Shown one piece after another: positions 7,158 through 43,325 of a stretch of 64,000 bases of DNA. Position numbers and translations under genes: made by a program. How positions within the stretch are numbered: position 1 is the first letter of the stretch; each line of letters starts with the position of its first letter. Under the pieces are notes generated by a model that was not told where the DNA came from, searched no databases, and worked only from the letters and a program-made list of their open reading frames with translations. The stretch comes from Candidatus Uhrbacteria bacterium (GTDB lineage Bacteria > Patescibacteriota > Patescibacteriia > UBA9934 > UBA10169), in the NCBI GenBank assembly GCA_016187485.1, contig JACPJO010000001.1:6195-70194 (forward strand). The letters are read 5' to 3'.

Positions 7158-7943
7158 TTATGGTGTTGGTAGGCCGGTGATCGGGCGGGATTGGAGGATG
7201 AAAAACTCGCCGTTGGCCAAGCTCCACTCTACATCCACGGGGAAGCCATAGTGTTTTTCAATGTTACAGACCATGTCGGCGAGAGCGAGGATACGTTCGG
7301 GAGAAAGTTTTTGCATTTCTTGTGGAGGGACAATGCTTTCCGTGACGGCGCGAGCGCGTTTGCCCACGACATATTGGTCTGGTGTGACTTCTCCGGACAC
7401 CAGTGCCTCTCCAAGCCCCTTCGCGGCCTCAATGATCATGGTATCGCGATTGCCGGTAACGGGATGCGCGGAGAAGGCAACACCAGAGACTTCTGCGGGA
7501 ACCATTGCCTGGACGACAACGGCAACAGGAATACGCGTAGCATGGTCAATTCCTTGTGCCGAGCGGTATGCCGTGGCACGAGCGGACCCGATGGACACCC
7601 AGCAGCGCTCCACATTTTCTCTAAGAGTATCTCGCTCTGTGTTGAGGTACGTCTCAAGCTGTCCGGCCCACGCCGCCGTCTTTCCATCTTCTGCCGTCGC
7701 GCTTGATCGGACGGCGACGTGTTCAGCTCCGAGTGCATCAAAGTTCTTGAGGATGTCATCCGCGAGTTCGTCTGTCATGACTCCGCACGCCGGAGCAAGA
7801 ATCACAAAACCCGCCGGTACCGGAAATCCCGCCCGCGTCATTTCTCCAAGCGAGGCCCCCTTTCCCCCCGCCTCCGCCACATCATCCTTTCCGATATCTT
7901 TGAGCCATTTTATGAGCTTCATATATTCCCAGGCATTATACAT
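7158..7943 (-). CDS. PEP-utilising enzyme N-terminal (PPDK_N/ATP-grasp-like) domain protein, standalone
   Basis: KWLKDIGKDDVAEAGGKGASLGEM is the classic PEP synthase/PPDK N-terminal signature. No phosphohistidine or PEP-binding domain follows. ATG at 7943 chosen; the ORF extends to a TTG at 8018. Confidence 0.65.
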   Translation of the reverse strand: MYNAWEYMKLIKWLKDIGKDDVAEAGGKGASLGEMTRAGFPVPAGFVILAPACGVMTDELADDILKNFDALGAEHVAVRSSATAEDGKTAAWAGQLETYLNTERDTLRENVERCWVSIGSARATAYRSAQGIDHATRIPVAVVVQAMVPAEVSGVAFSAHPVTGNRDTMIIEAAKGLGEALVSGEVTPDQYVVGKRARAVTESIVPPQEMQKLSPERILALADMVCNIEKHYGFPVDVEWSLANGEFFILQSRPITGLPTP

Positions 7944-8099
7944 CTTTCGTGACTTAGCCCCGAAGGTTGACCTTTTTTTACAGCTGTGGCACTCTTCTTC
8001 CAGATTTGCCGGAGACAACGGGTCGAAGATCCTCCAGAGCTTGAGCGAAGGAGGACATTCGTAAGTCCCGTCGAGGCGACCCCCGAGATTTTTCTTGGG

Positions 8100-8192
8100 G
8101 TCAGTCGTGTCTCTGCGGTCAAGTCCGCAGTTTATTTTTTATCACCCCTCCATAGCTCCAGAGGAGCGAAGGAGGATTAAAGGTCGAAACCT
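8100..8192 (+). promoter_or_regulatory. rplJ 5' leader with attenuator-like hairpin
   Basis: CTGCGG-tcaagt-CCGCAG followed by TTTATTTTTTAT at 8113-8142, then AGGAGG and an ATG at 8193; this matches the L10-leader class of autoregulatory elements. Confidence 0.5.
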
Positions 8193-8711
8193 ATGCCAAA
8201 AACACGTGGACAAAAAGAAGCAACCGTCGCAGAGCTTACAAGTAGACTCACTGGCGCGAAAGCCGTGGTGTTTGCCACCGTAAGCGGCTACACCATGGAG
8301 GACGCCAATGCGCTTCGCCAAGCGGGGCGCAAAGACGGTGTGGAGGTTGCTATAACAAAGAAAACCCTTCTCTCTCTGGCGGCCAAACAGGCCGGGCTTG
8401 AGCTTTCTCGCGACGTTCTTCCGGGATCGATCCTTGCCGCATGGAGCCAGAGCGATCAGGTCGCCCCCGCGCGCGTCCTTGCCCAATTTGCCAAGAAGCG
8501 TGAGTCTATCAAACTTGCGTCTGGCATTGTGGAAGGCAAGTTCGTGGGTGCCGATGTGGTGAAGCGTTATGCCGCGCTACCGTCACGCGAGGAACTCCTG
8601 GCGAAGATGGTAGGGTCTATAAACGCGCCCGTAAGCGGCTTCGTCAATGTCTTGGCGGGCAACTTGCGTGGGCTTGTGACGGTTCTCTCTAAGATTCAAC
8701 CTTCAACCTAA
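8193..8711 (+). CDS. rplJ: 50S ribosomal protein L10
   Basis: Sequence similarity (MPKTRGQKEATVAELTSRL...); followed by rplL. Confidence 0.9.
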   Translation: MPKTRGQKEATVAELTSRLTGAKAVVFATVSGYTMEDANALRQAGRKDGVEVAITKKTLLSLAAKQAGLELSRDVLPGSILAAWSQSDQVAPARVLAQFAKKRESIKLASGIVEGKFVGADVVKRYAALPSREELLAKMVGSINAPVSGFVNVLAGNLRGLVTVLSKIQPST

Positions 8712-20693: not shown

Positions 20694-21533
20694 ATGTCCG
20701 AGGAGCTTACGGATATTCTGGTAGAGTCAGGACTAAGTCCGAAAGAGGCGGCTATCTATCTTGCGGCGTGCGAACTTGGTCCCGCGGGTGTGCAAGAAAT
20801 TGCGAACAAGTCTGGTATCCAGCGCACGACAGTCTATGTCTGTCTTGAGACGCTGGAGAAAGAGGGGTTTATCTCTGGCGCAGAGGCAGCCGGCCGCAAA
20901 GTGTTTGTTGCTGCTCCGCCGGACCACGTGCTCTCTACAGTGAGAGCAAAACGCGAGGCGATTGTGCAGAAGGAGGAGAAACTTGCCTCTGCGCTGCCGC
21001 GTCTTACTGCTCTTTACAACGTGGAGGGACAAAAGCCGCAAGTTCTATTCATGGAGGGGCAGGAGGGACTCATGAGCCAGTTGGATGTTTTTGAAAAACT
21101 TGTCGGGCCCTTTATCCAGATCACCAATATTGACGACGCGGCAGAGGCGTTTAAGGGTCGAGAACAACGCCGCAAGGAGCATAAACAGCAATTGAAAGAG
21201 CAGGAAGTGGGCGGACGGACGCTGGTTGTTACGTCTAAGTCTCTTGAAGAACTACAGCTTCTTCCCATGCCCGTGGATCTGCGCTTTCTCCCGTTTGAAA
21301 ATTTTCCGATTCATGGAGAGGTGACGGTACGAGAGGACACGATTCTCCTCTATTCATTCCGCGGACAGACGTTCGTGACGATCATACGGAGTAAGACGAT
21401 GGCGGACACGTTGCGGAGTGTCTTCGAACTTGCGTGGAGCGGTGCGCGTATATATCCAGGCCTCTCTTCTCAAGAGCGTCTGGCTGGCTTTACTAAACCT
21501 CTCTCCGACCAAACTTTCCCAAAACAAAACTAA
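20694..21533 (+). CDS. TrmB-family transcriptional regulator
   Basis: N-terminal HTH LSPKEAAIYLAACELGPAGVQEIANKSGIQRTTVYVCLETLEKEGFI. Confidence 0.6.
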   Translation: MSEELTDILVESGLSPKEAAIYLAACELGPAGVQEIANKSGIQRTTVYVCLETLEKEGFISGAEAAGRKVFVAAPPDHVLSTVRAKREAIVQKEEKLASALPRLTALYNVEGQKPQVLFMEGQEGLMSQLDVFEKLVGPFIQITNIDDAAEAFKGREQRRKEHKQQLKEQEVGGRTLVVTSKSLEELQLLPMPVDLRFLPFENFPIHGEVTVREDTILLYSFRGQTFVTIIRSKTMADTLRSVFELAWSGARIYPGLSSQERLAGFTKPLSDQTFPKQN

Positions 21534-21574
21534 GTTTCGTTGTCGAAACTTAGTGTTGTTTAGTTTTGTCGTTT
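21525..21574. terminator. bidirectional intrinsic terminator (15-bp stem, 1 mismatch)
   Basis: CAAAACTAAGTTTCG-ttgt-CGAAACTTAGTGTTG, then TTTAGTTTTGTCGTTT; A-run on the other side. Marks the left edge of the GC-rich segment. Confidence 0.65.
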
Positions 21575-21691
21575 AAGGGGTGGGAGATCCGGCTCCTGTG
21601 GTCGAGCAGCGCTCGGCCACACGAGGGGGTCCTGAAGAAGAGTGTGCTTCAGGTCACGAACGGAGGGAGAAGGAACGGGGCGCCTGGGTGC

Positions 21692-22483
21692 CTAGTGAAG
21701 GACGAGGCTCGTCACCAGGTGGTCGAGCCCGATGGGCTGACGGTCGGGGTCGGACGCGACGGGGGCCACGGCGGCCTCGGGCTTCTTGTGCCCGTGCCGA
21801 CGGTTCCGGCGGCGGCCGTTGTTCTCGTCCTGCGCGACCGGGGACGCGGACTCGGCGGTCTTGGTGACCATCGGGGCCATACCCTTGACGGTCGCTTCGG
21901 TCTCGCTCTTGTCGGCGAGGAAAATCTCGAGGCGCCGGTCGGTCTCCTCCACCCACTGCGCGTTCTCGCGGCACGGATTTTCCCGCAGCGCTCGGAGCGC
22001 GTCCCGCTTGCGGCTGCGCAGCAGGGCCTCCATGTTCTCGAACGAGCGGCCGAAGACCTGCTCGAGGGACTCGCCGTCGCGGGCCACCCGCGTGCAGTAG
22101 GTGATGCGCAGCTGCTCCATGCGGTCGTCGCCGGCCGCGGCGATCTTCTCCTCGACGATCTTCTTGCGGTGCGCCTCGCTCTCGAGCCGCTCGGCGGCCG
22201 CCTTGATCTCGGCGTCCACCTGCGCGTGCTCCTCCGCGACGCGCTCGCAGAGCCGCGCCGCGAGCGAGGGGTTCACCTGGCGGAAGTGCTCGATGCTCTC
22301 GTTGAGGATCTGAAGCGGCGACCAGGTCGTCATCTCGGCGCCGCCGCCGTTGGCCGCCGCGAACCGCCGGAGCAGCCCTTCGATCCTCGTCATGTGCAGC
22401 GAGTCGCTGCACATGACGAGCTTGCGGGCGGTCTCGGCGAGCTCGCGGAACGAGGGCCGGGGGGAACGGGTGCTGTCGGACAT
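21692..22483 (-). CDS. hypothetical protein A of GC-rich island (Glu/Ala/Arg-rich, helical, basic tail)
   Basis: ATG at 22483-22481, TAG at 21694-21692; coding-like composition; no recognisable domain. Confidence 0.45.
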   Translation of the reverse strand: MSDSTRSPRPSFRELAETARKLVMCSDSLHMTRIEGLLRRFAAANGGGAEMTTWSPLQILNESIEHFRQVNPSLAARLCERVAEEHAQVDAEIKAAAERLESEAHRKKIVEEKIAAAGDDRMEQLRITYCTRVARDGESLEQVFGRSFENMEALLRSRKRDALRALRENPCRENAQWVEETDRRLEIFLADKSETEATVKGMAPMVTKTAESASPVAQDENNGRRRNRRHGHKKPEAAVAPVASDPDRQPIGLDHLVTSLVLH

Positions 22484-22826
22484 GTTCGTCTCCAGTGTGG
22501 CGCATCCGCGTGGGATGAACGCCGGGGGTTTGGGGTTCCTCACACCATTCTTAGGGGGTTGAGGGGTCCAGTGACATGCCGAAGCAGTATGGACCCATGA
22601 AACCCGGGCATGTGCATCAAGCGAGAAATCCCGGTTGAAGCACTTGGGTTTCACACCTCTCGTTCTGTCATATGGCAGTTCGGGAGGTGGGCTCTCTCTC
22701 CTCCTAAGAATGGTGGGAGGAACAATCTGGCCTGTGAGCGCGAGTGGGGACTCACGCGCACGGGGGGATTGGGGCCGGCGCAAGGTTTTCACCATGGGGC
22801 CCCGAGAAAGAAACTGATGGAAGGAA

Positions 22827-24110
22827 CTACTCGTCACGCAGCGCGCGGGGAGCGGCGCGGCGCGGACCCGGGGCGTTGCGCTTGGCAAGCGCTGCCTCGA
22901 TCTCGCGCTTCATCTCTTCGTCGACCGTGGGCGTGGGGGTGGGCTCTGCCACGGGGGTGCCGGCGGCGCGGCGGGCGGCGGCGCGGCGGGCGATGTCACC
23001 CATGACCGTGCTGCCGGCACTCGCACTCCGGTGGGCTTCCGAGTGCTCCCGCCGCTCCCGCACGAACTCACTCAACGCGTTCTTGGCGTCGAGCATGTCC
23101 ATGTGTGCGTTGGGGTGGCGGCTCTCGGTGTAGTGACGGATCCGACTTTCGAGGATCCGCTCCACGTCCCGCGGTTGGTAGCCGCGGATGCGGTCGAGGC
23201 TGTCCTCGGTCCGTCCGACCGCGACCTGCCACTTGCGCAGCCAGCCCCACAGGGGGTCCTGGTCGGCGCCGTCCACGTACGTCGTCCTCTCTTCTTCGCG
23301 TCCACGCTGCTCGGCCTTCTGCGCCCGTCGCTCTTCGCGTGCCTTGTTCCTGCGCTTCGTGTCCTCACCGAGGGCCTTCATGGCCTCCTCTTCGAGGTTG
23401 TTGAGGCAGGACCAGTCGCCGTTGCCGCTCACGACCTGCCGGGTCATGGTCTCCGCGATGGCCCAGTAGAGCTGGAGGGTGGAGACTTGCGCGGTCGGGG
23501 CGCCAATCCAGATCGGACGGCCGTCGCCGGCGTCCGTCTGCATGGCGGCCTCGAGGAGGAGCGTGCGAAGCGCGTTGCGGAGCTCGGGGTGCCGCTTTCG
23601 CAGCTCCACGATCCGGCGTGTCCTCCAGCCGCTCGTGATGCGGTGGTTCTTCCACCACGCCACGGGCTGGAGTGACGCCAGTCGCTCGCGCGGATCCTCA
23701 TCCGCCAGGGGCGGGTATTTCGTCTCCCACCACTGCGGCTGGTCCTCCGTCGGCTGGTCGTTGTGGGGGTCCACGGGGGTGAAGATGACGCGCGTGCCCT
23801 TGCAGGACGCTCGGCCCGTCACCTTCGTGCCCTCCACGCGCTCGCTCTGGATGGACTCGCCGACCTTGATTGCGACCTTCTCCTCGTAGTACGAGCTGGC
23901 CGCCAGCCATTCCTCGAAGCCCTGACGTTCGAGGAGGAGGGCTGCGGTTGGCCCGCTGCCCACTCCGCGGTCGGTGTCCCACGACTCCTCGTTGGGGTGG
24001 CAGACGATGTTCGCCACGCCACGGGTCAGGGGACGGATCTCTTCCCACCCCTGCTTCTCGCTGGCCGTCTGTGGCACGTTGCCGCGCCGGGAACTGCTGG
24101 TGCGTCCCAT
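22827..24110 (-). CDS. hypothetical protein B of GC-rich island (427 aa, Trp-rich N-terminal half, charged C-terminal half)
   Basis: AGGAGG 8 nt upstream of the ATG at 24110; no recognisable domain. Confidence 0.5.
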   Translation of the reverse strand: MGRTSSSRRGNVPQTASEKQGWEEIRPLTRGVANIVCHPNEESWDTDRGVGSGPTAALLLERQGFEEWLAASSYYEEKVAIKVGESIQSERVEGTKVTGRASCKGTRVIFTPVDPHNDQPTEDQPQWWETKYPPLADEDPRERLASLQPVAWWKNHRITSGWRTRRIVELRKRHPELRNALRTLLLEAAMQTDAGDGRPIWIGAPTAQVSTLQLYWAIAETMTRQVVSGNGDWSCLNNLEEEAMKALGEDTKRRNKAREERRAQKAEQRGREEERTTYVDGADQDPLWGWLRKWQVAVGRTEDSLDRIRGYQPRDVERILESRIRHYTESRHPNAHMDMLDAKNALSEFVRERREHSEAHRSASAGSTVMGDIARRAAARRAAGTPVAEPTPTPTVDEEMKREIEAALAKRNAPGPRRAAPRALRDE

Positions 24111-24347
24111 GGTCTCTAGCCTCCTGCGATGTTATCGCATGGTTCCGACTTTTTCCGCTTGGGACCATTCCCGCACGGAACAACTCGGTTGTTGTCGAAG
24201 ATCTTCGGCTTCTTTACTTTAACAAAAAAAGCCGTCCTTTGGGGAGAAACACTTTATCCTCAAAAGACGAATTTTTATTTTTTTGATGACGCGGGCTTCC
24301 CCAAGCTCTCGTCAGACCCCCAATTGGAAGGATCAAACTAACGGCGA

Positions 24348-24376
24348 AATGTATCACTTTTTGGGGCTTTTGTCAA
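24348..24376 (-). promoter_or_regulatory. sigma70-like promoter TTGACA-N17-TACATT reading towards island gene B
   Basis: -35 is rc of 24371-24376, -10 is rc of 24348-24353, exact 17-nt spacer; ~235-nt leader to the ATG. Confidence 0.45.
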
Positions 24377-24421
24377 TGGCCGACCTTCATCAATTCGCTT
24401 AAATAAGCCAACTTTTCTTTG

Positions 24422-24454
24422 TCACTAAGAGATCACTTAGTGATCACTAAGAGA
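24422..24454. repeat. operator-like alternating 11-mer triple (TCACTAAGAGA / TCACTTAGTGA / TCACTAAGAGA) containing the 16-bp perfect palindrome CTTAGTGATCACTAAG
   Basis: Read directly; one helical-turn periodicity; sits ~50-80 bp upstream of the -35 above. Confidence 0.45.
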
Positions 24455-24460
24455 GAATTT

Positions 24461-24492
24461 AAACAAAACAACCCAGATCGGGTTGTTTTGCC
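24461..24492. terminator. bidirectional intrinsic terminator
   Basis: AACAACCC-agatc-GGGTTGTT, then TTG/T-run; A-rich on the opposite side. Downstream of the 24560 gene. Confidence 0.55.
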
Positions 24493-24559
24493 CCCGCAGG
24501 AGGTCTCGGAGAGATCTTCTGTGGGGGGTGCGGCAGAGTGAGCCGCGAGAAGGGGTGGG

Positions 24560-25048
24560 CTAGTGCCCGTGGCCGCCGCCAGCAGCGGGGCCGTGATTGG
24601 CGTCGTGGTTGTCGTGACCGTGTCCCGTGCCGTGACGGGCAGCCTGCAGAGCACGCGCGCCTGCGCCGTGCACACGGCCCGCACGGCGCATGGCCTGCGC
24701 AGTGAGCACGGCACCCACGATGCCGAGGATACCGATCACCCACACCCACCAGTGCCATCCCACCAGTACGGTGAGGGCGTAGGCGACGAGCACGGGGTGG
24801 GCACTACGGTCGAGCCCGCGGGCGATGCCCTCTGCGTGCAGAGCGCTCGCGAGCCACCGGGCGATGGCGCCCGGGATCGCCCAATGCGCCCAAGCGAACG
24901 AGCACCATCCGAGCCACAGCATCTTGTTCGTGTGGCTGTACTCGAGGATGTCGAAGCCAGCCATCCAGAAACCCGCGTACCAATACCAGAGCGTGAGCAT
25001 CACGTGATCTTTCTCCGACGCATGGTCGGCGTTGGGGGTTATCGACAC
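24560..25048 (-). CDS. hypothetical membrane protein with His/Gly-rich C-terminal tail (GC-rich island)
   Basis: 3-4 TM helices; tail HGTGHGHDNHDANHGPAAGGGHGH; GC-rich like genes A and B. Confidence 0.45.
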   Translation of the reverse strand: MSITPNADHASEKDHVMLTLWYWYAGFWMAGFDILEYSHTNKMLWLGWCSFAWAHWAIPGAIARWLASALHAEGIARGLDRSAHPVLVAYALTVLVGWHWWVWVIGILGIVGAVLTAQAMRRAGRVHGAGARALQAARHGTGHGHDNHDANHGPAAGGGHGH

Positions 25049-25104
25049 AAGGATCTAAACGCCGGAGAATACTAAAAAAACGGCTTTTTGTCAAGTCAAA
25101 GTCG

Positions 25105-25113
25105 TGCTATAAT
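25105..25113 (+). promoter_or_regulatory. extended -10 element TGcTATAAT upstream of holB
   Basis: TATAAT ends 9 nt before the ATG at 25123, so this is probably a leaderless transcript. A divergent TTGACA-N16-TATTCT lies on the minus strand at 25066-25093. Confidence 0.4.
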
Positions 25114-25122
25114 CCCCGCACT

Positions 25123-26010
25123 ATGGATGAAATTGTTGGCCATTCACAAGCCTGTTCTTTTTTTGATCGTGCTATTTCTGCGGCAAAACTACATCATGCC
25201 TATGCCGTGTTTGGGCCGGATCATGTGGGGAAAACGGTGCTTATTGAGCGGGTGATTGGCCAGATCCTTCACACGCCGTCCGATCACTTGGACGCACACC
25301 CGGACTTTGTGCGGGTCCGTCGAGGAGTGGATGAGAAAACAGGGAAAGAGCGAACGGACATTGTGGTGGGTCAGATCCACGCTCTGCAGAGTGCCCTTGC
25401 GACACGCCCTGTTCTTGCGCCCCATCGTGTCGCGTTTATCGAGGAAGCGGCTCTCCTTAATAAGACAGGCGCGAATGCGCTCCTGAAAACGCTCGAGGAG
25501 CCGATGTCTCGTGTGGTGATTTTTTTGCGTACAACGCATGAAAGCGATCTCCCTAAGACGATTCTCTCTCGCGTGCAGCGCGTCCGGCTTTCACTGGTTT
25601 CCGCAGAAGCCATTGCAAGCATGCTTGTGCGTCTTGGCGCGTCGAAAAAAGAAGCACAAGAGTTTGCCGGTGCGTCTCATGGGTGTCCCGGTCTCGCGCG
25701 CACGCTTCTTCTGCATCCGGCCGATCACGAAGCGCGCGCCCGCGATCGTGCGCAGTTTGAGGAAGTGCTTGCTTTGCCGCTTGCCGGCCGGTCGCTCTAT
25801 TTATCGCGCGCTCTTCCAAAGGGCCAGCCTCGGGCAAAGGCCCTGGAGCTTGTGGAACTTTGGGAAGATGTGCTCCGCGCGCGCTGGCACGCAAGCGGAT
25901 TTGGCGCGCCGCAAACGGCTGTGCTCCAACGCCTCTTTCAAACGCGCGAAGCTCTACAGAGAAACGCGCCGCCTGTTCTTGCTCTTGAACACACTCTTTT
26001 TTTCGTATGA
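25123..26010 (+). CDS. holB: DNA polymerase III delta' subunit
   Basis: HAYAVFGPDHVGKT Walker-like motif; SRVQ sensor; clamp-loader fold pattern. Confidence 0.75.
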   Translation: MDEIVGHSQACSFFDRAISAAKLHHAYAVFGPDHVGKTVLIERVIGQILHTPSDHLDAHPDFVRVRRGVDEKTGKERTDIVVGQIHALQSALATRPVLAPHRVAFIEEAALLNKTGANALLKTLEEPMSRVVIFLRTTHESDLPKTILSRVQRVRLSLVSAEAIASMLVRLGASKKEAQEFAGASHGCPGLARTLLLHPADHEARARDRAQFEEVLALPLAGRSLYLSRALPKGQPRAKALELVELWEDVLRARWHASGFGAPQTAVLQRLFQTREALQRNAPPVLALEHTLFFV

Positions 26011-32527: not shown

Positions 32528-34243
32528 CTAATCGTGGCCAGTTACACGCATCACTTCCTCGAGCGAGGTGACACCATCGCGCAATTTGGCGAGCGCGCTC
32601 ACACGCAACGTCTTCATGCCACCGCGAACGGCTTCACGGCGAAGCTGCTCGGTCGTGGCACCGGCGGCGATCTGCTCGCACAGGTCGGAGGTGAGCGCCA
32701 TGATCTCGTAGATGGCGATGCGGCCCATGTACCCGGTCTCGTTGCAGGCGGGGCAGCCAACGGCGCGCAGGCAGGTGTACTCGTCTGACTCGTCAGACGG
32801 CACTCCCAGGTCGAGCAGGGTCTGGCGCGGAACGTCTTGGGGCTCGCGGCAGGTCTCGCACAGACGCCGCACGAGACGCTGGGCGATGATCATCCGCACG
32901 CACGCGGCGATCTCGAAGGCGGGCACACCCATCTCCGTCAGACGCGCGATCGTGCTCGGCGCATCGTTGGTGTGCAGGGTGGAGAGGACCAGATGCCCGG
33001 TCATCGCGGCCTGCACGGCCGTCTCCGCCGTCTCGAAGTCCCGGATCTCACCCACGAGGATCACGTCCGGATCCAGACGCAGGAACGACCGCAGTGCGGC
33101 GGCGAACGTGAGTCCTGCCTCCACGTTCACTTCCGTCTGCTTGATTCCGAAGATGTCGTACTCGACCGGCTGTTCCACGGTGAGGATGTTCGTCCCTACG
33201 ACGTTGATGTCGGAGAGCGCGGAGTAGAGCGTGGTCGTCTTGCCCGACCCCGTCGGACCCGTCACGAGGACCATGCCACTTGGAGCATGCAGGGCGGCAC
33301 GGAACCCCTCGAGCTCTGAGGACTCCAATCCGAGCTTGGTCATGTCGAGCTGGAGCTTGCTCTGGTCGAGAATCCGGATGACCACGTACTCGCCGTGCTG
33401 GGTGGGAATAACTCCCACGCGCAGGTCGATGTTTCTCCTGCCGCCGAGCTTGAGCTTGATCCGGCCATCCTGGGGCTTCCGGCGCTCGGAGATGTCCAGG
33501 CGCGCCAAGATCTTCACGCGTGAGATGATCGCGTTGCGGTATTTGAACGGAGGCTTGAGCACGTCGTAGAGCACTCCGTCGATGCGGAACCGGACGCGCA
33601 CCTGGCGCTCGAAGGGCTCGATGTGGATGTCGCTCGCGCGGTTCTTGATCGCGCTTGCCAGGATGAAGTTGACGAGCCTGATAACCGGTGCTTCGCCGGC
33701 GACTTCTTCAAGTTCTGCCGCGGTGACATCTTCCTCGGCATCCTTCTCCACTTCCAGTCCGTCGTCTGACAGCCCCAGTTCTTCCAGAGCGTTCTTGAAC
33801 GTCTTGGCGGAGAGGTAGCAACGATCGATGAGAGCGTTGATCTGGCTTTCGGGAGCCACCACGACTTCGAGCTTGTGGCCGGTCTTGACCTCGATGTCGC
33901 GTCGCGCGACGAGATCCCCTGGGTCGACCATGACAACGGTCAAAGTGTTGCCCGACAGACTCAGGGGCACCATGCGGTAACGGTCCACGAGCATGCGCGG
34001 AATGAGCTTCAACACCTTGGAATCCGGTGAAGCCTCCGAGAGGTCTACGGGCTGGACGTCGAACTGCCTCCTCAACGCGTGGACGATTGCGTTCTCGTCG
34101 ATCACGCCGTAGCGCACGAGCTCGTAGCTCAGAGGTCCGCCGGTCTGCTTGACGCGGTCCAGGGCTTCCTGGAGCTGAAGAGGAGAGATGTCCTTGTTGT
34201 GCACGAGCAACTCGCCAAGACGGGTATCAGAAGCTGATATCAT
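32528..34243 (-). CDS. pilB: Type IV pilus assembly / type II secretion ATPase PilB/GspE
   Basis: N-terminal GSPII_E domain; Walker A GPTGSGKTT; Asp box; His box; tetra-Cys CETC...CPAC. Confidence 0.85.
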   Translation of the reverse strand: MISASDTRLGELLVHNKDISPLQLQEALDRVKQTGGPLSYELVRYGVIDENAIVHALRRQFDVQPVDLSEASPDSKVLKLIPRMLVDRYRMVPLSLSGNTLTVVMVDPGDLVARRDIEVKTGHKLEVVVAPESQINALIDRCYLSAKTFKNALEELGLSDDGLEVEKDAEEDVTAAELEEVAGEAPVIRLVNFILASAIKNRASDIHIEPFERQVRVRFRIDGVLYDVLKPPFKYRNAIISRVKILARLDISERRKPQDGRIKLKLGGRRNIDLRVGVIPTQHGEYVVIRILDQSKLQLDMTKLGLESSELEGFRAALHAPSGMVLVTGPTGSGKTTTLYSALSDINVVGTNILTVEQPVEYDIFGIKQTEVNVEAGLTFAAALRSFLRLDPDVILVGEIRDFETAETAVQAAMTGHLVLSTLHTNDAPSTIARLTEMGVPAFEIAACVRMIIAQRLVRRLCETCREPQDVPRQTLLDLGVPSDESDEYTCLRAVGCPACNETGYMGRIAIYEIMALTSDLCEQIAAGATTEQLRREAVRGGMKTLRVSALAKLRDGVTSLEEVMRVTGHD

Positions 34244-40358: not shown

Positions 40359-41120
40359 ATGGAGGGTTCATCCATGAGGCCTATCGTTTTTCTCCCCGGG
40401 GCCTGGGGCAACCGAGATCAAGCCATCGGATACTGGACGCGACGCATCCGCGAAGGGCTTTCACCTCCTGCTTTGCACTCGTTCATTCCGATGGGCTACG
40501 ATCGCGATGCGCGCACGCAGAAGCAGGTCGTTCGGCACCTCATCGAGGGCATTCGGCGCAGTGTCGGCGTGTTCGAGATCCGATCCGGCGTGGACGTCAT
40601 CGCCTACTCGTGGGGGGCGTACTTGGCCTGCATGGTCGGCACGCTCCAGCCCGGAATCATCCGGCGTGCCGTCTTCATCTCGGGGATGCCGCACATCGGG
40701 TTCGGGCTCTGCAACACCCTGCGTTTTGCACGAGCGGCACCCAGCTGTCTCTTCGCGGCGCTGGGAGGCTCCTTCGCCCTGCGCAGCACGCAGGAGGTCC
40801 ACCGATGCTTCTTCCCCGGGGTCGTTCCAGATGACGGACTCGAGGGGGAGGTTCTCGCGCATATGCATCCCGAGCGCACCTCTGCGATCCTGCAGCTTCT
40901 GCCGGGACCGCAGCAGATACGGGCTGAATCGCCGATCTTCCGTGTGCTCGCTCTGCGCGCGCCAGACAGACAGGACGTCTTCAGCGCTGGCGCCAACTAC
41001 CAGGGAGGCGTGGACGTGACGTGCAAGGTCATGCCTGACTGGACACACGGGACAATCCTCACATCGGCGATGAGCGACGTGACACATCGTGTCATCGAGC
41101 CCTGGTTCACCGCTCGCTAG
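40359..41120 (+). CDS. alpha/beta-hydrolase fold protein
   Basis: Nucleophile elbow AYSWGA; GC-richer than neighbouring genes. Confidence 0.55.
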   Translation: MEGSSMRPIVFLPGAWGNRDQAIGYWTRRIREGLSPPALHSFIPMGYDRDARTQKQVVRHLIEGIRRSVGVFEIRSGVDVIAYSWGAYLACMVGTLQPGIIRRAVFISGMPHIGFGLCNTLRFARAAPSCLFAALGGSFALRSTQEVHRCFFPGVVPDDGLEGEVLAHMHPERTSAILQLLPGPQQIRAESPIFRVLALRAPDRQDVFSAGANYQGGVDVTCKVMPDWTHGTILTSAMSDVTHRVIEPWFTAR

Positions 41121-41165: not shown

Positions 41166-41212
41166 ACTTCCTCTTTTTGCTCGCGTACTGTCTTGCACGG
41201 AGGTTATGTCGG

Positions 41213-42052
41213 ATGACACGACAAGAAATCTGCGACAGTGTCGGACGTGAACACGCCAATACGGTCACGCGCCGTCTCGAGAAGGCGGGGCTTCCGTGCC
41301 CCCGTCTCGCGATTCAACTCGGTGACGGGTTCGAACTCTCCGAGTTCAAGCAGGTGCAGTCCTTCCCCCTTCGGGAGACCTTCTCGGGACTCCATGACCT
41401 TCCCGAGTTGGACCCGCCGCGCGCAATTTCCTACGGCTTCCTGCCCTGGGACATTCCGGTCCTGGTGACTCCTCGCATCTCGCTTCACGAGCGCAATCCC
41501 GTGACGGGTCGCGGTGACGCGCGCAACTGGGTGCGACTCCTCAACGACACCCTTGTCTTCGCAGGGTGCACGCGGCTTGTCATCCTCACGGAGGCGGGAA
41601 GCATCAATGCATTCATCCCGGGCGATCTCGTCACCGTGCGGAGCGTCTCCACCATCTTCATGCGCGACTGGCCGATGTACCAGGGGGAGGCCTGCCAGCC
41701 TGACCGGGCGCTTTCCCGGGAACTGGCATTGGTCGCCACGCAGGCATCCATTCAAGCGGACGTGGATCTCAAGATGGGCAAGCATGTGTACTGGCACGGG
41801 CCTGGCATCGAGACGGAGGACGACAAGCGCATCATCCGGCAGCTGACGGCGGCTGAGCTCATCAGTATGTCGGTGCTGCCCGACCTCGCGGTGTGGGCTT
41901 TGCATCCGGACACGGCCGTTCTTCCTCTGGCACTTGTCACGAACGGCATCAACAACCCGTTCAATCTCGAGCACAACCAGCGTCACGTGGCGGAAAGCAA
42001 AGAGAGGATCACACCGATCCTCTCGAAGCTCATCCCGCTCCTGGCACGCTAG
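41213..42052 (+). CDS. Purine nucleoside / MTA phosphorylase family protein (divergent motifs)
   Basis: RISLHE ~ GRfHlYEG; VILTEAGSINAFIPGDLV ~ lvTNAAGgLn..f.vGDlm; GGAGG 9 nt before the ATG at 41213. Confidence 0.45.
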   Translation: MTRQEICDSVGREHANTVTRRLEKAGLPCPRLAIQLGDGFELSEFKQVQSFPLRETFSGLHDLPELDPPRAISYGFLPWDIPVLVTPRISLHERNPVTGRGDARNWVRLLNDTLVFAGCTRLVILTEAGSINAFIPGDLVTVRSVSTIFMRDWPMYQGEACQPDRALSRELALVATQASIQADVDLKMGKHVYWHGPGIETEDDKRIIRQLTAAELISMSVLPDLAVWALHPDTAVLPLALVTNGINNPFNLEHNQRHVAESKERITPILSKLIPLLAR

Positions 42053-43296: not shown

Positions 43297-43325
43297 TTGA
43301 CACGAAGGGCCCAAACCGCTATCAT
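43297..43325 (+). promoter_or_regulatory. sigma70-like promoter TTGACA-N17-TATCAT upstream of typA
   Basis: Exact consensus -35, 17-nt spacer; -10 ends 14 nt before the ATG, so there is little or no leader. Confidence 0.4.

Follow-up and report, generated by a model that had tools for sequence, protein, structure and literature searches.

Terminator attenuators of Firmicutes (riboswitch platforms, T-box, TRAP/trp, PyrR/pyr and LicT/BglG-RAT) have a long structured leader with a hairpin and U-tract between promoter and ribosome-binding site, and leader sequence and structure are kept more strongly than the regulated gene. A leader with these properties precedes gene B, an orphan gene in a 64,000-nucleotide stretch of DNA (hereafter the window; contig JACPJO010000001.1, positions 6,195 to 70,194) whose proteins are labelled Candidatus Uhrbacteria bacterium, of the Candidate Phyla Radiation (CPR), at NCBI. 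The spacer between gene B and the upstream gene A contains, from 5' to 3' on the minus strand, an array of three 11-bp repeats, a promoter and the leader. The reading that we favour, with moderate confidence, is that a promoter of the sigma-70 type directs synthesis of a structured leader of the attenuator type for gene B. By analogy, the leader appears to work like the attenuator-type leaders, outside every curated family. Unlike them, it has its invariant elements (H4 and H5, see below) 3' of the terminator-like hairpin rather than upstream of or overlapping it, belongs to no Rfam family, is represented by two examples, and has no identified antiterminator or ligand-binding domain.

To our knowledge, gene regulation in the CPR (Patescibacteria) is almost unknown, these bacteria being uncultured or hard to culture and having compact genomes with few recognisable regulators, and promoter usage among them is almost uncharacterised. 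The promoter and its leader RNA, which is far more conserved than the downstream protein, provide a tangible cis-regulatory element of CPR bacteria that is open to experimental test. The leader also marks an odd cassette, in which genes with a G+C content at third codon positions (GC3) near 0.9 and almost no relatives have host-like structured spacers between them. Its value is limited by there being two leader copies in public data, and by the regulated gene B having no assigned function. A 2025 cross-phylum promoter study included one CPR species, Nanosynbacter lyticus (PMC12641261).

The promoter and leader of gene B

The original prediction for this spacer, made from the sequence, placed a TTGACA-N17-TACATT promoter at 24348-24376 of the minus strand. 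This promoter is present, and carries an additional TG extension: the -35 hexamer TTGACA (24371-24376), with 6/6 consensus positions, is separated by a 17-nt spacer from the extended -10 element TGaTACATT (24348-24356, with TG at 24356-24355 and TACATT at 24353-24348). Ten of the 12 hexamer positions match the consensus, the -10 alone having 4/6. A consensus scan of 21300-25400 found three promoter-like sites, compared with 0.3 +/- 0.6 in shuffled sequences, and no other promoter-like site between the B promoter and gene B. Intergenic TTGACA occurs only three times in the window, each time with a -10-like hexamer 17 nt downstream, and one site each lies before gene B, gene A (25094-25066) and the native gene typA/bipA (43297-43325). 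Since all three are paired with a -10-like element, and one lies before a native gene, a canonical housekeeping promoter is credible in this organism. Judged on its motifs, the B promoter is of the ordinary extended -10 sigma-70 type. It shares with such promoters in E. coli and B. subtilis the TTGACA hexamer, the 17-nt spacer, TAnnnT, the TG one base upstream, an intergenic position and the strand of the downstream gene, and differs from them in that its -10 has only four of six consensus positions and its start is predicted from sequence. Transcription is predicted to start near 24342, giving a leader of ~232 nt, close to the ~235 nt originally put forward.

The other two promoters of this kind were also inspected. 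That of gene A (25066-25094, minus strand; TTGACA-N17-TATTCT) is divergent from holB, and the short leader that follows it (25001-25059) might open with a 7-bp hairpin, CGGCGUU...AACGCCG. The idea that the promoters of genes A and B are copies of a duplicated module was rejected as too weak, since they have only TTGACAAAAGCC in common and 22/1000 shuffles equal or beat their local alignment. Of the promoters in the window, the one that matches the consensus best (TTGACA-N17-TATCAT, 11/12 positions, 43297-43325, plus strand) lies ~14 nt before the longest-ORF (open reading frame) start of typA/bipA; this gene therefore has a very short leader or none, or its start codon is further downstream.

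Folding of the leader, which had been proposed as a check on the original prediction, shows that the ~232-nt RNA folds better than 200/200 shuffles (z = -3.1). Near its 5' end is the stem-loop H0 (24315-24334, GAUCCUU...GGGGGUC), found in both the minimum-free-energy and the centroid folds, followed by hairpin H1 (24287-24314), with a core GCUU-GGGG-AAGC at 24295-24306. Beyond an A-rich tract lies the element H2 (24224-24270), composed of a hairpin (24270-24232, -14.7 kcal/mol), the dinucleotide GC and a run of seven U residues (U7, 24230-24224). H2, a terminator-like hairpin, was absent from the original prediction; a simple terminator scan also missed it, the apical part of the hairpin being larger than the scan's loop limit. 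Downstream of the U-tract is a 22-nt block, AAGCCGAAGATCTTCGACAACA (24190-24211), that includes the 12-bp palindrome CGAAGATCTTCG. This palindrome, which we refer to as H4, had been placed at about 24203-24214; it exists, but 7 nt away, at 24196-24207, and as RNA it forms a short stem of 4 bp only. It is followed by the palindrome AACAAC-N3-GTTGTT (24179-24193) and by hairpin H5 (24153-24180), which has a 6-bp outer stem, a GC/AA internal loop and the apical sequence GGGA-AUGG-UCCC, and contains a 20-nt core, GTGCGGGAATGGTCCCAAGC, at 24157-24176. The last hairpin, H6 (24123-24142), lies directly 5' of the Shine-Dalgarno sequence AGGAGG (24120-24125), itself 9 nt before the ATG of gene B at 24110, and its base pairs with the first two G residues of AGGAGG. 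Within H6 is UGCGAU-AAC-AUCGCA (24125-24139), adjoining AGGAGG; this sequence and the AACAAC palindrome had both been noted before, and both are present.

Conservation of the leader at a second locus

Homologues of B are very rare. A word-indexed search of 5.8 billion proteins matched B only to itself, and an exhaustive HMMER scan of 1.84 billion representative proteins found one true relative, P0004 (E = 1e-38). Its gene, together with 204 nt of upstream sequence, is on a JGI metagenome contig of 1,440 bp, here L040 (Ga0233425_10121584, metagenome 3300024054). In a codon alignment, B and P0004 have 37.5% amino-acid identity, and their coding DNA is 52% identical (48% at third positions). The region upstream of the P0004 gene aligns with the window leader from 24305 to the start codon, with a core of 82% identity over 145 aligned nt, while the best 150-nt coding stretch of the two genes reaches 71%. 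The longest exact match between the window and L040 is 22 nt in the leader and 13 nt in coding DNA, and the leader match in blastn (154 nt, 78%, E = 1e-28) is stronger than that of any part of the gene. Since the leader is 82% identical and the coding DNA 52%, this non-coding segment is the part of the locus under the strongest constraint. With insertions or deletions of 5, 1 and 10 nt in the leader alignment, the 10-nt one falling between U-tract and palindrome, a conserved reading frame is ruled out for both strands.

The leader of L040 also folds better than 200/200 shuffles (z = -3.5), and the RNAalifold consensus of the two leaders retains H1, H2, H4 and H5. Seven of the 42 predicted pairs are changed on both sides, and H1, H2 and H5, which are local hairpins, account for four of these; when the structure is slid by 1-3 columns there are none. 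In L040, H1 reads GCACUU-GGGG-AAGUGC, with one compensatory change from G-C to A-U. H2 is more stable there (-18.7 kcal/mol) and runs straight into U6; the hairpin is 37-39 nt long across the two loci, with a U.G pair changed to U-A and one compensatory pair in the apical part. At both loci H2 thus has the form of an intrinsic terminator, in which a stable hairpin leads into a run of at least 5-6 U residues. The 22-nt block and the 20-nt core of H5 are identical in L040, and with the apex of H5 invariant its outer stem carries two compensatory pairs and one wobble change. A hairpin of unrelated sequence stands in L040 at the place equivalent to H6, and its base likewise pairs with the first G residues of the Shine-Dalgarno sequence. 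The AACAAC/GUUGUU hairpin is specific to the window and is not kept in L040, and the contig stops short of H0. Of the regulated switch that was originally suggested, the part concerning RNA structure or attenuation is thus supported by the leader identity, the compensatory pairs and the conserved H2 with its U-tract; the part concerning an operator is not, as discussed below for the 11-bp repeats.

On the favoured reading, the extended -10 promoter in the A-B spacer would direct transcription from ~24342 of a leader that acts in cis as RNA, consisting of H0 and H1, an A-rich linker, H2 with U7, a conserved 3' domain (the 22-nt block with its CGAAGAUCUUCG palindrome, plus H5 with its invariant apex) and the hairpin before the Shine-Dalgarno sequence. 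H2 and its U-tract would serve as an intrinsic terminator, or attenuator, ending a fraction of the transcripts, and those that read through would carry the invariant H4 and H5 as well as the hairpin that covers part of the Shine-Dalgarno sequence. Expression of B would then be set after initiation, by the share of read-through at the U-tract and by the accessibility of the ribosome-binding site. The leader probably controls the expression of B. Because H5 combines an invariant apex with a covarying stem, and the 22-nt block is invariant with weak RNA pairing, the H4 and H5 sequences are probably recognised by a sequence-specific trans-acting factor, for which B itself and a host protein are candidates. 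A bolder version, which we think improbable, is that the leader is a cis-regulatory RNA of a new class, either an attenuator that responds to a protein or ligand or a translational operator, and belongs to a very rare GC-rich CPR cassette, with a cassette protein such as B binding H4 and H5 and the 11-mer array being the DNA site of the same module. If true, this would be a self-contained regulatory unit that travels with genes lacking known relatives.

The 5' half of the leader would also suit an independent small RNA of ~118 nt, running from 24342 to the U-tract at ~24224 and ended by H2, with B having a non-consensus promoter of its own in the conserved DNA further downstream and CGAAGATCTTCG acting as a DNA operator. 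Its 5' hairpins, A/U-rich linker, hairpin and U7 are the typical layout of a bacterial small RNA, the H2 terminator is nearly identical in sequence in L040, and since the 12-bp palindrome gives only a 4-bp stem as RNA, its 100% conservation fits DNA recognition equally well. However, there is no promoter-like site in 24222-24111, the 10-nt indel shows that the spacing from U-tract to palindrome is not fixed, and the outer stem of H5, 3' of the terminator, covaries, which argues that this region is transcribed and folded. We consider the small RNA unlikely.

Leader-peptide attenuation is a further way in which H2 could act. An upstream reading frame can be drawn from a GUG inside H2 (~24250), preceded by GAGGA, that would encode MFLPKGRLFLLK in the window and MCLPKRRLFC in L040, and its translation would open the terminator hairpin at its 3' arm, permitting read-through. 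Both sequences have a GAGGA or GUGGA motif, a GUG and a short open frame. Every difference between the two peptides, however, alters an amino acid or the length, giving no sign of coding constraint, and the ribosome-binding site and start codon are both buried in H2. We regard this mechanism as very improbable.

The opposite possibility is that there is no regulation, the promoter being constitutive, the array a product of replication slippage and the leader similarity a result of recent recombination. Consistent with this are the chance frequency of single palindromes (see below), the existence of two leader sequences only, and the 100% identity of seven Logan contigs, which show no population variation. 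It would leave unexplained the four compensatory changes in local hairpins against none in the slid controls, the folding of both leaders at z < -3, and the 449-nt length of the A-B spacer, which is unusually long for a genome that is otherwise compact (10% intergenic). Absence of regulation is accordingly a distinctly unlikely account of the spacer.

Several points weigh against the attenuator reading itself. The covariation comes from two leaders only, with the structure predicted on the same alignment in which pairs were counted, and so has little statistical power. The high leader identity could stem from a recent recombinational exchange of leaders between elements. In classical riboswitches and antitermination leaders the most conserved blocks are upstream of the terminator, whereas here they are 3' of the putative one, and H2 is A/U-rich and of only modest stability in the window. 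In Rfam 15 neither leader had a match at the gathering score, nor anything meaningful at E up to 10. The array upstream of the promoter is single-copy, no protein that binds it was found, and no relative's sequence spans it. The start site at ~24342, termination, read-through, the trans-acting factor and the role of the array are what we infer from the arrangement of these elements. Antiterminator pairings could be drawn by eye, of GACGAG (24311-24306) with UUCGUC (24271-24266) and of AUCCUU with GAGGAU; they are short and weak, and L040 stops at the equivalent of 24305.

Searches for more leaders returned nothing homologous beyond L040. Three IMG/VR scans with the invariant blocks gave one match, a chance 20-mer in a high-GC ORF of a viral contig; a JGI metagenome scan with an 18-mer gave 34 matches, of which only the known L040 is homologous; and with a covariance model of H2-H5 neither the window nor any of the fetched loci yielded another copy.

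The 11-mer array upstream of the promoter

Small dimeric proteins bind tandem short repeats, as operators or centromeres, in plasmid R1 parC, where ParR binds 11-bp iterons, in the met-boxes of MetJ, and in the operators of Arc and Mnt, which have an 11-bp subsite spacing. Upstream of the B promoter, three head-to-tail 11-mers (TCACTAAGAGA / TCACTTAGTGA / TCACTAAGAGA) lie at 24422-24454, exactly where the original prediction had them; TRF assigns them a period of 11 and 3.0 copies. Every unit is palindromic or near-palindromic, giving dyad centres each 5.5 bp. The perfect 16-bp palindrome CTTAGTGATCACTAAG that had been described within the array is also there (24436-24451), is unique in the window, and is accompanied by further nested dyads, one of 15 bp (GATCAC-TAA-GTGATC) and one of 20 bp matching at 18/20 positions. 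The array is at ~-80 to -112 from the predicted start, 45 bp 5' of the -35 hexamer and 8 nt 3' of a terminator-like hairpin of gene A. That hairpin (24464-24490, minus strand; CAAAACAACCC-gatct-GGGTTGTTTTG) has 11-nt arms that are 100% complementary and a T-rich tail, and forms a 13-bp stem in a fold of 24500-24400.

No comparable three-unit array with a period of 8 to 14 arose in 200 dinucleotide-preserving shuffles of the window, and the window contains no second copy of the array. Perfect palindromes as such are not over-represented: there are 2 with arms of at least 8 nt against 1.24 expected, and 17 with arms of at least 6 nt against 18.5. The three-unit array is thus non-random; one such palindrome is no more than 64 kb may hold by chance. 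A collection of representative genomes (596 Gb) that excludes the window's own genome has 31 exact occurrences of the 16-bp palindrome, where composition predicts ~45-140 by chance. None of the 31 matches has flanking 11-mer repeats, and the matches are unrelated. L040 ends short of both promoter and array.

The array would stand in presumably untranscribed DNA between the terminator of gene A and the promoter of gene B. It is most likely a site for a protein on one face of the helix that modulates the promoter from upstream, by activation, looping or insulation, rather than an occluding operator of the classical kind. Because it is located at ~-80 to -112, a site for an upstream activator, for looping or for an insulator suits it better than one for a repressor. 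In common with the parC, MetJ and Arc types of site, the array has head-to-tail, near-palindromic units of one helical turn, with dyads at unit centres and junctions, beside a promoter. It differs in having only three units, in its position 5' of the core promoter, which it neither flanks nor overlaps, and in that no ParR-like, MetJ-like, Arc-like or other DNA-binding gene was detected in the island; the likeness is limited to repeat geometry.

The original prediction regarded the array as an operator for a dimeric helix-turn-helix regulator. An operator at which a dimeric helix-turn-helix or ribbon-helix-helix repressor silences the island promoter would be in keeping with the non-random array (0/200 shuffles), with the 11-bp period of one helical turn and with the nested dyads, among which the perfect 16-bp palindrome falls in the range of 14-20 bp. 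However, the position of the array is outside the -35/-10/+1 region that repressors usually occlude, it is the sole copy in 64 kb, and the 16-mer is at or below chance frequency in the 596 Gb and never has flanking repeats there. No DNA-binding domain was detected in the proteins of the island genes A, B and C with Pfam, NCBIfam, PHROGs or PADLOC. The native gene of the TrmB family next to the island (20694-21533) is a candidate regulator only: the half-site spacing of the published TrmB site (TACT-N3-AGTA), like that of TGM-type sites, does not fit the array. The operator claim is not supported, and we think a repressor site here doubtful.

The array also invites comparison with the repetitive extragenic palindromes (REP), their mosaic arrangements (BIME) and the associated Y1 transposases (RAYT). 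A related genome ('Candidatus Kerfeldbacteria', JACQPY010000004.1, 1-2380; here L039) has an island at the equivalent site, containing a low-GC IS200-like Y1 transposase gene (1464-2162) with inverted hairpins, CTCGTCAC-TTG-GTGACGAG, on both sides. The array resembles REP elements in its short palindromic units of alternating orientation just 3' of a terminator, and in that this related genome has a hairpin-flanked Y1 gene. Unlike them, it occupies a single locus in 64 kb, has 11-bp units rather than imperfect hairpins of 20-40 nt, and has no RAYT or Y1 gene in the window. A link of the array with hairpin elements of the IS200/REP type, as their remnant or their target rather than as a regulatory site, is suggested by the core of the L039 hairpins, TCACTTGGTGA, which differs by 1 nt from the central 11-mer. 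This resemblance consists of a 4-nt arm and a loop and could be chance, the window lacks further copies of such hairpins as well as the transposase, and REP elements normally have many copies; such a link is highly unlikely. Clustering of GATC as a signal of the Dam/SeqA type was also considered for the spacer, which has six, and was rejected: the window mean is 4.5 per kb, and counts of 6-7 also occur elsewhere, in several stretches of 350 bp.

The island and its genes

The window has a G+C content of ~54%, and the locus tags HYW18_00155 to HYW18_00165 belong to it. Genes A, B and C lie on the minus strand in a GC-rich island of ~3.5 kb (21560-25120), with ORFs of 68-72% G+C, between the native TrmB-family gene (20694-21533, plus strand) and holB (25123-26010, plus strand). 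Gene A (24560-25000) encodes 146 residues and has a GC3 of 0.81, gene B (22827-24110) encodes 427 residues, without family assignment, with a GC3 of 0.88, and gene C (21692-22483) encodes 263 residues with a GC3 of 0.955. The GC3 of native genes is 0.5-0.65, compared with 0.81-0.96 in the three island genes, and the ORFs antisense to A, B and C have the mirror-image codon-position G+C that antisense frames should give. From this pattern and its mirror image we conclude that A, B and C are real genes. The antisense ORFs of A and C that appear as automatic calls on one Logan contig (L001, 5036-5548, 170 residues, and 7511-8467, 318 residues) were rejected as high-GC artefacts by their codon-position G+C.

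The junctions of the island are the same in seven independent Logan assemblies, which excludes a chimeric assembly, and its sequence is 100% identical in all seven contigs. A plasmid or phage origin was tried and rejected, 3.7 kb having no blastn match in PLSDB or INPHARED. Proteins A, B and C have no significant match in Pfam, PHROGs, NCBIfam, PADLOC or PDB sequences, and have no or almost no relatives among 5.8-15 billion proteins. Protein-guided scans of IMG/VR with B and C gave no matches, and an AlphaFold2 model of B from the 2-sequence alignment was unusable (predicted local distance difference test score, pLDDT, 44.6). The spacers between the island genes are AT-richer than the genes, with a host-like G+C of 0.47-0.59, and are highly structured. 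This contrast of GC-rich genes and host-like spacers recurs in L040 (GC3 0.87 in the B homologue, leader G+C 0.50) and in L039.

In L039, the 3' end of the TrmB gene is 93.5% identical to 21342-21526 of the window and the region of gene C is 83% identical at the DNA level; there is also an additional GC-rich gene without known relatives (680-1354). In the window, the 5' end of gene C contains an inverted repeat whose perfect 17-nt arms are 1 nt apart (CTCGTCATGTGCAGCGA / TCGCTGCACATGACGAG, 22386-22420). Between the convergent TrmB gene and gene C, at 21529-21554, a hairpin with an 11-bp stem and T-runs on both strands marks the island's left edge; it resembles a terminator acting in both directions and includes one half-site, CACTAAG.

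The B-C spacer (22484-22826) comprises 343 nt of non-coding DNA without codon-position GC signal. It folds very strongly on both strands (z = -7.3 and -7.1; -146 and -172 kcal/mol), has a 24-nt inverted repeat (22535-22558 / 22700-22723, 92% complementary) that closes a domain of ~190 nt, and has no match in Rfam. Possible readings are a long leader of gene C, a non-coding RNA with a defined structure, or an insertion resembling a miniature inverted-repeat transposable element.

Raised GC3 is also seen in window genes outside the island: a type II/IV secretion ATPase (T2SSE/MshEN; 32528-34243, minus strand) has a GC3 of 0.82, and an alpha/beta-hydrolase and a PNP_UDP-like protein (40359-41120 and 41177-42052, both plus strand) have values of 0.76-0.77. 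These may be further acquired genes.

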